From the NCBI RefSeq assembly GCF_056746865.1, contig NZ_CM163382.1: DNA of 64,000 bases. One strand, 5' to 3'. The translations under genes were made by a program, and so were the position numbers. Positions 25,846-32,900 of the stretch are shown one piece after another. The notes beneath the pieces are model-generated. The model worked only from the letters and a program-made list of their open reading frames with translations, did not search any database and had not been told where the DNA came from. How positions within the stretch are numbered: position 1 is the stretch's first letter; every line of letters starts with the position of its first letter.

Positions 25846-25932
25846 AAGTCGAATCAGGGCTGAAGTGGCACACTGAATTTGGCCACCTGAACAGAGGTGA
25901 TATGCTCACCTCAGAACAACACAGGTGCTCCA

Positions 25933-26205
25933 ATGAAAAAAAGAAATTTCAGCGCAGAGTTTAAACGCGAATCCGCTCAACTGGTTGTTGACCAGAAATA
26001 CACGGTGGCAGATGCCGCGAAAGCTATGGATGTTGGCCTTTCCACAATGACAAGATGGGTCAAACAACTGCGTGATGAGCGTCAGGGCAAAACACCAAAA
26101 GCCTCTCCGATAACACCAGAACAAATCGAAATACGTAAGCTGAGGAAAAAGCTACAACGCATTGAAATGGAGAATGAAATATTAAAAAGGCTACCGCGCT
26201 CTTGA
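25933..26205 (+). CDS. insN: IS911 OrfA (HTH regulator), C-terminus altered by frameshift
   Basis: [49 protein letters not shown]...; ends ...ILKRLPRS instead of the expected ...[17 protein letters not shown]. Confidence 0.75.
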
Positions 26206-26260
26206 TGTCAGACTCCCTGAACAGTTCTCGATAATCGGGAAACTCAGAGCGCATTATCCT

Positions 26261-27100
26261 GTGGTCACACTCTGCCATGTGTTCGGGGTTCATCGCAGCA
26301 GCTACAGATACTGGAAAAACCGTCCTGAAAAACCAGACGGCAGACGGGCTGTATTACGCAGTCAGGTACTTGAGCTACATGGCATCAGCCACGGTTCGGC
26401 CGGAGCAAGAAGCATCGCCACAATGGCAACCCGGAGAGGCTACCAGATGGGACGCTGGCTTGCTGGCAGGCTCATGAAAGAGCTGGGGCTGGTCAGCTGT
26501 CAGCAGCCGACTCACCGGTATAAACGTGGTGGTCATGAACATGTTGCTATCCCTAACTACCTTGAAAGGCAGTTCGCCGTGACCGAGCCAAATCAGGTGT
26601 GGTGCGGTGATGTGACCTATATCTGGACGGGTAAGCGCTGGGCGTACCTCGCCGTTGTTCTCGACCTGTTCGCAAGAAAACCAGTGGGCTGGGCCATGTC
26701 GTTCTCGCCGGACAGCAGGCTCACCATGAAAGCGCTGGAAATGGCATGGGAAACCCGTGGTAAGCCCGGCGGGGTGATGTTCCACAGCGATCAGGGCAGT
26801 CATTATACGAGCAGGCAGTTCCGGCAGTTATTGTGGCGATACCAGATCAGACAGAGTATGAGCCGGCGCGGAAACTGCTGGGATAACAGCCCAATGGAAC
26901 GCTTCTTCAGGAGTCTGAAGAACGAATGGATGCCGGTGGTGGGTTACGTAAGCTTCAGCGAGGCAGCTCACGCCATAACGGACTATATCGTTGGATATTA
27001 CAGCGCACTAAGACCGCACGAATATAACGGTGGGTTACCCCCAAACGAATCGGAAAATCGATACTGGAAAAACTCTAACGCGGTGGCCAGTTTTTGTTGA
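26261..27100 (+). CDS. insO: IS911 OrfB (DDE transposase catalytic domain)
   Basis: 279-aa ORF with IS3-family DDE region (...WCGDVTYIW...[10 protein letters not shown]...[10 protein letters not shown]...). Confidence 0.8.
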
Positions 27101-27108
27101 CCACTTCA

Positions 27109-27463
27109 AGAGAAAAGAACCGATGAAGGTGGCCAGTACATTTTGTGTGGTGACGTCTTCAACAACTAAACGCGTAGCTCTGGGAGTCACATTAGTAGTG
27201 GCTGAACCGTAGGCTGTGACCATGATACTCAGCGAAAATGTGGTCACTGCCAGCATACTCGATGCCAGTATGTTCAGAATGTTATCGACTGCTTCCGCAC
27301 CAACCTTCACGGAAACCGACTCAGGTATCATTGATTTAAAAAGAATTGATAAAAGGGCCGTTATTATCGCGACAATTGCGAATAACGTTGCCCTGAACCA
27401 TAGTTTTTTAATTGTCTGCTTCAGCATCCATTTCCAGCGTGAAATCATTCTGCATTCCCTCAT
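27109..27463 (-). pseudogene. N-terminal fragment of a membrane protein truncated by IS911
   Basis: Minus-strand ORF with two predicted TM helices reads straight into the IS911 right end at 27108. Confidence 0.5.
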
Positions 27464-30480: not shown

Positions 30481-30557
30481 CGCTTCAATGGGAAATTGTT
30501 GTCGCCATTGTTCGATTAACGCGTATTTTTCAGCGACTCCTGTGCAAAATACGCTGT

Positions 30558-31778
30558 TGTAGATTCAATCTGTCAATGCAACACCCCTTTCAATTATCTC
30601 TTTCGGTGTTTTGAACTTCAGTGTCTTTCTCGGTCTGTTGTTTAGCTGAGCAGCAACCAGATCTAGTTCATGTTGAGTATATTGGGCAAGACATGTCTTT
30701 TTAGGAAAGTACTGCCGAATTAGCCCATTTGTGTTCTCATTTGTTCCCCGCTGCCAAGGACTCTGAGGATCGCAGAAGTAAACTTTAACGCCGGTGCTGA
30801 CAGTAAATTCTAGATGTCTGGCCAGTTCCATTCCTCTGTCCCATGTCAGTGATTTTCTGAGTTCTGACGGTAAACTCAGGAATTTGTCGGTAAGAGCCTG
30901 ATTTACTGAGACAGAATCTTTGCCCCTGAGTCTAAGGATGATCGTATAACGTGATTTTCGGTCTACAAGTGTGGCTATATGAGAGTTTTTTGTACCTGAG
31001 ACTAAATCGCCCTCCCAATGCCCTAGAGAGCGTCTGTTATCGATATTTCGGGAACGTTCGTGAATTGGTGTTCCGTTCACTATGTTAATCGTACCTCTTT
31101 CGCCTTTGCGGGTATGACGCCTGCCATGGCGAAGGCTATGCGACCGTCGCAGATGCTGTATATTCAGGTGGTGTAGCGCTTCACGGCTACGAAAGTACAG
31201 CGTTTTATAAATTGTCTCAGGTGATATTCGCAGCGTTTTTTGACGTGGTTTTGTTCGCCTTAACCATCCTGATATTTGCTCTGGAGACCATTTCATCTCC
31301 AGCTTTTCCAGAACAAGCTTTCGCAATGGTAAATTTTGATCCAGTAAGCACGGTTTTGGCCTTTTCGCCATTCTGTTGGCTCGGTTATTAGCATCAACAG
31401 CTTTGTAATAGCGTCTGCCCCGATTACGCTGAACTTCACGTGAGATCGTCGAAGGACTGCGATTCAGCGCAGTAGCTATCGCACGAATGCTCATTTTGGC
31501 TGACAAACCAGCTCGTATCTCCTCGCGCTCAGACAGTGTCAGGTGAGCTACAGCCCGCTTACGCTCATGGGGTTTTATGCCGCCAGTATCCCTTAACATA
31601 GTGAAGATCGTTCCGGGTTTTGAACCCAGGATATTCGCTATTTCACTGAAGCCTGTTCCGTTCTTCCATAGTTCAAAAACAGAGGCTTTTTCCTCTGCTG
31701 TAAATGTTCGTCTCATTCAAAAAACCTCCGCAACCCCATGTTTTCACATAACTGTTGCGTTGACCAATTGAAGCTACA
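30558..31778 (-). mobile_element. IS30 (1221 bp) nested inside the IS600-like element
   Basis: IRs TGTAGATTCAATCTGTCAATGCAACACC / TGTAGCTTCAATTGGTCAACGCAACAG; flanked by GT/GT 2-bp duplication. Confidence 0.9.
30565..31716 (-). CDS. insI: IS30 transposase
   Basis: 383-aa ORF MRRTFTAEEKASVFELWKNGTGFSEIANILGSKPGTIF... Confidence 0.9.
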   Translation of the reverse strand: MRRTFTAEEKASVFELWKNGTGFSEIANILGSKPGTIFTMLRDTGGIKPHERKRAVAHLTLSEREEIRAGLSAKMSIRAIATALNRSPSTISREVQRNRGRRYYKAVDANNRANRMAKRPKPCLLDQNLPLRKLVLEKLEMKWSPEQISGWLRRTKPRQKTLRISPETIYKTLYFRSREALHHLNIQHLRRSHSLRHGRRHTRKGERGTINIVNGTPIHERSRNIDNRRSLGHWEGDLVSGTKNSHIATLVDRKSRYTIILRLRGKDSVSVNQALTDKFLSLPSELRKSLTWDRGMELARHLEFTVSTGVKVYFCDPQSPWQRGTNENTNGLIRQYFPKKTCLAQYTQHELDLVAAQLNNRPRKTLKFKTPKEIIERGVALTD

Positions 31779-32041
31779 GTTGCTTTTTTTAATATATCTC
31801 GCTCAAGGCGAGCTTCATTTAACGCCTTACGCAGTTGCAGAATTTCAGATTCCAGTTCAGCCACCGTGCGGGAACCAGGAGTACCGAGCCCTTTTCTGGC
31901 GGCGGTAACCCATTGTCCTAAAGTGCCTTCAGGAAGAGATAATCGGGAAGCGCCTTCACTGATCGAAAGTTGATTTTCAAGAACCGTTCTGACAGCTTCG
32001 GCTTTGAACTTTTTAGAGTAACGTTGGGTTTTTCTGCTCAT
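31779..32041 (-). pseudogene. IS600-like OrfA, 3' end displaced by the IS30 insertion
   Basis: MSRKTQRYSKKFKAEAVRTVLENQLSISEGASRLSLPEG...DILKKAT then reads into the IS30 terminus; rejoining the flanks restores ...KKATAYFAQESLKNTR. Confidence 0.75.
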
Positions 32042-32105
32042 TATTAGCTCCTTCTGATGCCATTCTATTTCAGGAAGGAGTGTCCGTTAAACTCAGGCTA
32101 CCTCA

Positions 32106-32900
32106 GGAAAAACCGTCCTGAAAAACCAGACGGCAGACGGGCTGTATTACGCAGTCAGGTACTTGAGCTACATGGCATCAGCCACGGTTCGGCCGGAGCA
32201 AGAAGCATCGCCACAATGGCAACCCGGAGAGGCTACCAGATGGGACGCTGGCTTGCTGGCAGGCTCATGAAAGAGCTGGGGCTGGTCAGCTGTCAGCAGC
32301 CGACTCACCGGTATAAACGTGGTGGTCATGAACATGTTGCTATCCCTAACTACCTTGAAAGGCAGTTCGCCGTGACCGAGCCAAATCAGGTGTGGTGCGG
32401 TGATGTGACCTATATCTGGACGGGTAAGCGCTGGGCGTACCTCGCCGTTGTTCTCGACCTGTTCGCAAGAAAACCAGTGGGCTGGGCCATGTCGTTCTCG
32501 CCGGACAGCAGGCTTACCATGAAAGCACTGGAAATGGCATGGGAAACCCGTGGTAAGCCCGTCGGGGTGATGTTCCAAGCGATCAAGGCAGTCATTATAC
32601 GAGCAGGCAGTTCCGGCAGTTACTGTGGCGATACCGGATCAGGCAGAGTATGAGTCGGCGTGGAAACTGCTGGGATAACAGCCCAATGGAGCGCTTCTTC
32701 AGGAGTCTGAAGAACGAATGGGTGCCAGCGACGGGCTATGTAAGCTTCAGCGATGCAGCTCACGCAATAACGGACTATATCGTTGGATATTACAGCGCAC
32801 TAAGACCGCACGAATATAATGGTGGGTTACCACCAAACGAATCAGAAAACCGATACTGGAAAAACTCTAACGCGGAGGCCAGTTTTAGTTGACCACAACA
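32106..32900 (+). pseudogene. 5'-truncated second IS911 copy (OrfB portion, frameshifted near 32575)
   Basis: Near-identical to 26313-27108 of copy 1; two ORFs 32057-32653 and 32650-32892 cover the OrfB sequence in different frames. Confidence 0.8.

Follow-up and report, generated by a model that had tools for sequence, protein, structure and literature searches.

Architecture of the betU locus

We analysed a 64,000-nt stretch of Escherichia coli DNA (contig NZ_CM163382.1, RefSeq assembly GCF_056746865.1), referred to below as the window, in which a block at 25861-32900 carries betU, an intact gene for an osmoprotectant transporter, a secondary carrier of the betaine/carnitine/choline (BCCT) family, surrounded by insertion sequences (ISs). 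The window represents the island at tRNA-leuX. Wherever its flanking genes were compared with K-12 MG1655 they proved identical, and in the annotation of the NCBI Prokaryotic Genome Annotation Pipeline (PGAP) the block adjoins nanXY and fec. The individual features are collected in Table 1; all the elements that an earlier sequence-only reading of this DNA had listed were found, with coordinates exact to the base.

Two copies of IS911 in direct orientation bound the block, a complete one on the left (copy 1) and a remnant on the right (copy 2). Between them lie the beginning of a DUF2254 membrane-protein gene, betU itself and an IS600 that is interrupted by IS30. Once IS30 and one copy of its GT duplication are removed, this IS600 is complete, with 1264 bp. 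In plasmid copies of betU the native upstream sequence runs on past the point where IS600 starts in the window. The translation of the shortened DUF2254 gene (DUF2254') corresponds to residues 1-113 of the full-length O104:H4 protein, and PGAP annotates it as a pseudogene without C-terminus. Regarding the flanks, a full-length orthologue of yjhE (415 aa) exists in ST131, and the yjhV-like open reading frame (ORF) at 32975-33232 had no match in NCBIfam. In the same consensus scan that detected the terminator-like hairpin between betU and DUF2254', sites of the hairpin type were not more numerous in the region than in shuffled sequence.

The sequence-only reading had also remarked that the junctions of this block lack target duplications, and this holds. 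No duplication is present at IS911 copy 1 (GGC on the left, AGA on the right), at IS600 (TGT and GGA) or at the outer pair formed by the left side of copy 1 and the right side of copy 2 (GGC and GAC). The IS30 within IS600 does have a 2-bp duplication, GT, and the IS4 at 20826-22251 has one of 12 bp, ATCTTGGTTCTG.

Table 1. Features of the betU block and its immediate flanks, in window coordinates
Feature	Position	Strand	Basis or equivalent
yjhE', C-terminal remnant of a major facilitator superfamily (MFS) transporter gene, left flank	25597-25845	+	ORF list
yjhE' as annotated by PGAP, MFS transporter; weak MFS matches in NCBIfam	25642-25845		PGAP annotation
IS911 copy 1, full length, 1248 bp, both inverted repeats	25861-27108	+	sequence reading
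DUF2254', codons 1-113 of 425 of a membrane-protein gene, truncated where IS911 copy 1 ends on the right	27110-27448	-	
Terminator-like hairpin, just after the betU stop, before the DUF2254 start	27484-27502	-	consensus scan only
betU, intact BCCT-family osmoprotectant transporter gene	27511-29514	-	Pfam domain, UniRef match
Native betU upstream sequence, 104 bp, up to the IS600 end	29515-29618	-	
IS600, 3' part, 939 bp, includes the right inverted repeat (IRR) end at 29619	29619-30557	-	
IS30, 1221 bp, simple insertion into IS600	30558-31778	-	
IS600, 5' part, 327 bp, includes the left inverted repeat (IRL) end at 32105	31779-32105	-	insM remnant of K-12
IS911-like remnant (copy 2), IS911 positions 453-1248, abuts the IS600 end	32106-32900	+	IS911B-1 of K-12
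yjhV-like small ORF, right flank, followed by fecEDCBARI	32975-33232	+	PGAP annotation

Identity of the transporter

The betU ORF has 667 codons from the first ATG, or 665 aa from the PGAP start, and contains no internal stops; the protein is identical in E. coli B. Residues 21-506 match positions 1-485 of the 485-position Pfam BCCT model (PF02028) with E = 1.4e-198, and the TIGR00842 model is passed with 540.5 bits against a cut-off of 407.55 bits. The nearest solved chains are likewise BCCT transporters, 8ybq at 3.7e-194 followed by BetP and CaiT. The exact protein sequence is the UniRef entry Q71CH5_ECOLX. In addition, an IS1-flanked DUF2254-betU module on an IncHI1 plasmid is 98.9% identical at the DNA level, with 664 of 665 BetU residues identical, and has the layout of Tn6062. 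At codon 399 (28318-28320) the window and E. coli B have Ser, and the five other compared copies (plasmid, ST131, O104:H4 and Rac-adjacent) have Ala.

BetU has been described as an uptake system for glycine betaine and proline betaine that was first found in E. coli from pyelonephritis (PMC3139670; also PMC13300293), and Holt et al. (2011, PMC3139670) showed that S. Typhi with the two genes of Tn6062 is able to grow in 0.8 M NaCl. The sequence matches thus identify the window gene as betU, predicted to encode a glycine-betaine/proline-betaine importer.

The sequence-only reading had called the transporter BetT-like, a label that does not carry over to its function. A second BetT that imports choline and feeds betaine synthesis would be in line with the NCBIfam BetT model, which the protein passes (750.8 bits, cut-off 695 bits), with the long C-terminal extension that it has in common with K-12 BetT and with the name ‘choline BCCT transporter BetT’ that PGAP gives to some copies, others being called BCCT family transporter. 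The model, however, is of the subfamily kind and not an equivalog, and the ‘BetT’ label appears in some records because the betU product passes it. The end-to-end alignment with K-12 BetT gives 42% identity, betU is not linked to betIBA, and the substrates reported for BetU are glycine betaine and proline betaine (PMC3139670). K-12 BetT, a reported choline:H+ symporter, thus resembles BetU in family, overall length and C-terminal cytoplasmic extension, and differs from it in sequence, locus and substrate. A choline importer is therefore a very unlikely identity for this gene.

Distribution of betU and of its junctions

Among 5426 complete E. coli genomes, the set used for all genome counts given here, betU was detected in 1959 (36%). 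The junction between IS911 and DUF2254' occurs in 526 genomes, with one record per genome, and the junction between IS600 and the truncated IS911 (IS911') in 1249. The interval 25000-34000 of the window was covered to at least 80% at one place in 598 genomes, only 526 of which have the exact IS911-DUF2254' junction. Carriers of a window-like locus include derivatives of E. coli B as well as isolates from dog, poultry, pig and human; in one carrier the flanking core genes are 0.8% diverged from the window. All IS911-DUF2254' loci that were inspected sit at leuX. Neither these genomes nor the plasmid collection showed the IS911-flanked unit elsewhere; in the plasmid collection, the only full match was a record of 4.9 Mb.

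Three classes of alleles could be distinguished. The first is 100% identical to the betU of the window and has the truncated DUF2254, that is, the window arrangement. The second is 99.6-99.8% identical and is accompanied by a full DUF2254, e.g. in ST131 and O104:H4. The third, 93.7% identical in its DNA, lies beside the Rac prophage, and 414 records show an identity of 90-95%; here betU-DUF2254 has MFS, gamma-glutamylcyclotransferase and LysR genes as neighbours and is not directly flanked by any IS (extract L010, 7063-10401). This Rac-adjacent allele looks like an independent acquisition. Outside the chromosome, the DUF2254-betU module was found on 1527 plasmids, mostly of Klebsiella. Ly, Henderson, Lu, Culham and Wood (J Bacteriol 2004) reportedly found betU in about one third of isolates, flanked by insertion sequences. 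The incidence of 36% obtained here is close to that reported figure.

One further record concerns the region as a circle. pEC11-5 (NZ_CP060942.1) is deposited as a circular ‘plasmid’ of 21,115 bp, has no replicon or mobility typing and contains only fecIRABCDE, yjhV, an IS911-like element, shf-capU-virK-lpxM, IS600, betU, DUF2254, IS3 and IS1. Either the island gave rise to this circle by excision or amplification, or the record is an artefact of assembly.

The two IS911 copies

Along its whole length, copy 1 shares 99.5% identity with the IS911 of a Shigella dysenteriae plasmid, from which five substitutions and a 1-nt deletion in an A run set it apart. Its slippery site (26185-26194) reads A5G and not the A6G heptamer, orfB is at +1 relative to orfA, and orfA ends early. 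The A6 run is kept in the S. dysenteriae IS911, in IS911A of K-12 and in the ST131 copy. As the A5G sequence puts orfB at +1, the normal -1 frameshift cannot make transposase from copy 1. PGAP still joins the two frames as a ‘programmed frameshift’ transposase (WP_085948656.1), with a 1168-nt span that fits only a +1 join. The IS911B fragment of K-12 shares this A5G allele, as does the hybrid element described below, which is the single IS911 of this site in up to 951 genomes.

Copy 2, which PGAP names ISEc52-like, equals copy 1 exactly over IS911 positions 453-861, a run of 409 identical bases. Over positions 862-1248 it shows 27 differences from copy 1 (7% diverged), including a frameshifting 1-nt deletion, and its IRR-side end reads ...CACAACA where IS911 has ...CACTTCA. 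Within positions 453-861, the ST131 counterpart has five differences from copy 2 of the window, clustered in positions 573-707 (135 bp; window 32226-32360), and at all five the window has the base of canonical IS911. Such clustering suggests that a patch was converted in either the window lineage or that of ST131. The more specific idea that copy 1 had converted copy 2 was considered and not retained; the usual divergence between alleles, or a converted patch on the ST131 side, explains the differences equally well.

Structural variants of the island

An alignment with other leuX islands, which the sequence-only reading had proposed as a check, resolved the locus into a series of structural variants: an ST131/O104 form, an E. 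coli B form, the form of the window, a K-12 form and a form with a single IS911.

In the case of ST131, the order is full yjhE, an IS911-like fragment (positions 1-328), about 12 kb of sugar-utilisation genes, acuR, full DUF2254, betU, intact IS600, IS911' (453-1248), yjhV and fec. The left fragment is cut right after the A6 run, at about position 328 (extract L009, 1324-1657), its junction with yjhE lies at the same nucleotide as in the window, and the yjhE sequence next to it is 96.1% identical to that of the window. On the other side of betU, the betU-IS600 and IS600-IS911'(453) junctions are those of the window, and no IS911 lies beside DUF2254. The betU-IS600 junction is identical in ST131, O104:H4, E. 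coli B and pEC11-5. Since the right-hand junctions occur in ST131 without copy 1, IS600 and IS911' probably joined betU before copy 1 came to abut DUF2254. These two junctions are thus probably older than the IS911-DUF2254' junction, and an older age would rule out that the IS911 pair delivered betU.

E. coli B has the window arrangement exactly, with IS30 absent, so that the window corresponds to the B-type arrangement plus IS30. As for the left-hand junction, its reciprocal, in which the C-terminal side of DUF2254 would meet the left end of IS911, was found in 0 of 5426 genomes. A simple insertion of IS911 into DUF2254 was considered and set aside on this count, which cannot separate a deletion from an IS911 end from an insertion followed by recombination, as the latter also erases the reciprocal junction.

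In O104:H4, msbB2-virK-capU-shf lie between IS600 and a full IS911-like element. This element is a mosaic around a group II intron, 92% identical on its left and 99.6% on its right. An order in which the O104:H4 type preceded the ST131 type, by way of a deletion of msbB2-virK-capU-shf from the IS600 end, was dropped in view of this mosaic; a double crossover importing plasmid-like DNA is equally possible. The IS600 beside betU in O104:H4 and pEC11-5 lacks 17 bp exactly at the IS30 site of the window (30548-30557 and 31781-31787, with the duplication allowed for), and this shorter IS600 is annotated with a single 1140-nt transposase ORF that needs no frameshift (extracts L005, 8509-9755, and L016, 16554-17693). 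The 17-bp loss may be the footprint of an imprecise loss of IS30 that fused orfA and orfB.

Between IS600 and lpxM, O104:H4 and pEC11-5 also share 82 bp that were tried as native upstream sequence of betU. This was rejected, since they are the end of an IS66-family element, terminating in the complement of GTAAGCG. In the window, 47842-47923 are these terminal 82 bp of the IS66-family element, whereas in O104:H4 and pEC11-5 they stand as an isolated remnant of an IS66 end.

The K-12 form

K-12 MG1655 is the window minus 26195-30557 (4363 bp). The window intervals 25000-26194 and 30558-34000 are 99.9% identical to K-12 and contiguous there. On the right, the K-12 sequence resumes at the first base of IS30 (30558), and IS30 is retained. 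The left breakpoint falls directly after TTAAAAAGGCTAC (GGCTAC, 26189-26194). In prophage CP4-6, IS30A is inserted into IS911A at this very dinucleotide, with the duplication AC. IS911A carries the motif ATATTAAAAAAGGCTAC at IS30A (K-12 extract L012, 4527-4541 and 5763-5764). Its counterpart in IS600 (30556-30557 and 31779-80) follows the motif ATATTAAAAAAAGCAAC, again with an AC duplication (GT on the other strand) and in the same relative orientation as in IS911A. Both IS30 sites lie just after the programmed-frameshift slippery run of two different IS3-family elements, and the frameshift windows of IS911 and IS600 read ATATTAAAAAARGCWAC. The frameshift window of IS911 and IS600 looks like a natural hot spot for IS30.

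Hot-spot targeting with a 2-bp stagger is documented for IS30, as are deletions starting from an inverted-repeat end (PMC9333248). Altogether, the K-12 patchwork of IS911B, IS30D and IS600 is best read as the scar of a deletion that would have removed betU. Queried together with its yjhE' flank, this scar was found in 366 genomes, many of them laboratory derivatives of K-12. A junction query without the flank, IS911(334) to IS30, had returned 1210 genomes and was discarded as a count of the K-12 deletion, being not specific.

A different arrangement at the same target was seen in NDM2. There, the IRL side of the IS30 in IS600 meets IS911 positions 334-1, which are inverted, and not the 5' part of IS600 (extract L015, 17457-19002), and the island is turned round with respect to leuX. 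The arrangement looks like the result of an inversion associated with IS30 at the same IS911 target.

The form with a single hybrid IS911

In avian pathogenic E. coli (APEC) O78, betU is absent and one element of 1247 bp lies between yjhE' and yjhV, flanked by GGC and GAC. Compared with a constructed hybrid of copy 1 (positions 1-452) and copy 2 (453-1248), it shows 0 differences. A recombination across the 409 identical bases would remove 5793 bp from the window form. At the level of sequence, the single hybrid IS911 is the exact product expected from recombination between the two direct repeats. A hybrid query of 1595 bp, made of copy 1 (53-452), copy 2 and the yjhV flank, reached at least 80% coverage in 951 genomes, and the best 25 of these 951 were 100% identical to it along its entire length.

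Proposed history of the locus

Taken as a whole, the segment is most probably the betU locus of a KpLE2-type island at tRNA-leuX, and its ISs would be scars and agents of later rearrangement, not carriers of betU. From its anatomy, the shared junctions and the exact sequence relations among the variants a history can be proposed, whose direction and mechanism we infer at each step. The oldest form in the series would be the one kept in ST131, DUF2254-betU-IS600-IS911'(453-1248)-yjhV-fec. A full IS911 at the yjhE junction would then have been joined to codon 113 of DUF2254, without target duplication and with loss of the intervening genes, either by a deletion from an IS911 end or by recombination with a second IS911, giving the E. 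coli B form. Insertion of IS30 into IS600 at a preferred IS30 target would have produced the window form. In the K-12 lineage, the inner IS30 end would have been joined to the equivalent target in copy 1, deleting the 4363 bp with betU. Separately, homologous recombination across the 409 identical bases of the direct IS911 copies would remove betU and leave one hybrid IS911. Under this history K-12 would have lost betU, and the window strain would not have gained it.

Several observations weigh against this reading. The direction of events was taken from parsimony and not from a phylogeny. At the shared junction nucleotide, the left IS of ST131 is only 85% (84.8%) identical to copy 1 (25861-26188). 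The presence of IS30 and the truncation of DUF2254 occur in all four combinations (ST131, NDM2, B and window); therefore either the IS600 site was hit by IS30 more than once, or island halves were recombined between strains, and a strictly linear history of the variants is too simple. In K-12, an insertion of IS30 into IS911 followed by recombination between the two IS30 copies would yield the identical product. The equation with BetU depends in part on Q71CH5 being the BetU deposit of 2004, and also on the plasmid-module match. With respect to function, DUF2254, the usual partner downstream of betU, is truncated here and full-length in all other contexts examined (plasmids, ST131, O104:H4 and Rac-adjacent), IS600 begins only 104 bp upstream of the betU start codon, and a simple scan of those 104 bp did not find a consensus sigma-70 promoter on the minus strand. 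Lastly, the single-IS911 form could be ancestral and the betU form could have arisen by integration of a circle.

In this last scenario, the betU block would have entered a single hybrid IS911 by homologous recombination as a circle of an IS911 segment, DUF2254', betU and IS600, and the window form would be a gain. The numbers speak for it, with up to 951 genomes for the single form and 526 for the two-copy form, as does the fact that integration and excision leave identical junctions, so that structure cannot separate them; pEC11-5, the circular record of fec, betU and their neighbours, means that circles of this region have at least been reported. The circle needed for this, however, is what a two-copy locus releases on excision, and such a locus must then have come first. 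Moreover, betU-IS600-IS911'(453-) occupies this site in ST131 as well, where DUF2254 is complete and has no IS911 next to it, and the IS911-flanked unit was not seen at other IS911 copies or on true plasmids. We consider an ancestral single IS911 rather doubtful. Loss of betU from the two-copy form is favoured, because the circle that integration requires is an excision product and because ST131 has betU at the site without the junction of the left copy. One could go further and regard betU as a reversible cassette between its two IS911 repeats, the excised circle re-entering any IS911 copy, plasmid copies included, and forming together with IS30, drawn to the frameshift windows of IS911 and IS600, a high-frequency switch for the presence or absence of the importer. 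This would explain the patchy 36% distribution of betU across E. coli, and we hold it to be quite improbable.

A composite transposon, in which IS911 transposase acting on the outer ends of the pair had carried betU into the leuX island, can point to the outer IRL of copy 1 and the outer IRR-side end of copy 2, both present and in direct orientation, and to the true IS1 composite Tn6062, in which betU does travel elsewhere. The outer flanks, on the other hand, show no duplication, and the same GGC and GAC bound the single-IS911 form. Copy 2 lacks its first 452 bp, is frameshifted and differs from IS911 in its terminal bases; copy 1 with its A5G run makes no transposase by the normal -1 frameshift. 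The right-hand junctions exist in ST131 without copy 1, and the IS911-DUF2254' junction is found once per genome, at leuX wherever it was inspected. With no outer duplication, a defective or truncated IS pair and right-hand junctions that are independent of the left copy, we rejected the composite transposon as hardly credible.

A different kind of objection is that betU is present as a silent relic, IS600 having taken its native upstream region and IS911 its partner gene, with an ORF that is intact only since the rearrangements are recent. The short upstream region, the negative promoter scan and the truncated DUF2254 mentioned above would fit this. Against it, the betU ORF is without stop or frameshift in every locus examined, BetU differs by at most two residues from the ST131, O104:H4 and plasmid copies, and the betU-IS600 junction is common to strains whose flanking core genes are 1.3-3.1% apart (ST131 and O104:H4 versus the window). 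A junction shared across such diverged strains implies that betU has long been kept intact with IS600 in place, and a silent relic is unlikely. betU is presumably expressed and active in this context, where the intact gene would import glycine betaine and proline betaine for growth at high osmolality.

Several earlier suggestions about the block can be compared with this history. The statement that the gene is missing from the equivalent position in K-12 was confirmed by the genome comparison with MG1655. The gain of betU that it implied found no support, as the absence in K-12 would correspond to a secondary loss, the window minus 26195-30557 with flanks that are 99.9% identical. ‘Strain-specific cargo’ is likewise contradicted by a gene in 36% of complete genomes and by the 526 genomes with the IS911-DUF2254' junction. 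The proposal that the block arrived or was reshaped by IS-mediated recombination holds for the reshaping, which the structural variants document, and fails for an arrival via the IS911 pair, given the ST131 junctions without copy 1. Similarly, the notion of cargo bounded by IS911 is right in that the unit is present or absent between genomes, up to 951 having one hybrid IS911 in its place, and wrong in that the pair did not deliver betU.

The value of these findings lies mostly in a clearer record. The gene that many PGAP records label ‘BetT’ or ‘BCCT family transporter’ should read BetU, for which an osmotolerance phenotype has been shown when plasmid-borne. For the interpretation of K-12 as a reference, this strain would, through a 4.4-kb deletion scar, understate how far its close relatives, E. 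coli B included, are able to take up osmoprotectants. The locus is, in addition, a compact natural case in which three IS families would erase an accessory gene by two routes.

Comparison with known systems

Both the gene and the island have already been described, and novelty is low; the findings would not surprise specialists in E. coli islands or osmoregulation, and they open no new question. With the BetU of uropathogenic E. coli from 2004, the window protein is the same as far as this is testable, and the gene itself shows no difference. Tn6062 on the IncHI1 PST6 plasmids has the same two-gene DUF2254-betU module. It is, in contrast, a true IS1 composite on a plasmid with a full DUF2254, whereas the locus of the window is chromosomal, is associated with IS911 and IS600::IS30 and retains 113 codons of DUF2254. 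Regarding the intramolecular transposition of IS30 at hot spots (PMC9333248), the ends of the K-12 deletion match the described behaviour, which here is read from sequence alone.

KpLE2 of K-12 and B (insO/IS911B-IS30D-insM; PMC3032704, PMC5379014) is the same island with the same flanks, nanXY, yjhD, yjhE', yjhV and fec. The 4363-bp deletion is all that sets K-12 apart from the window, and for E. coli B it is the missing IS30. In the annotation of K-12, IS911B is treated as one element split by IS30D and IS600; by our comparison, its two parts come from two separate IS911 copies and would have been joined by the deletion that removed betU.

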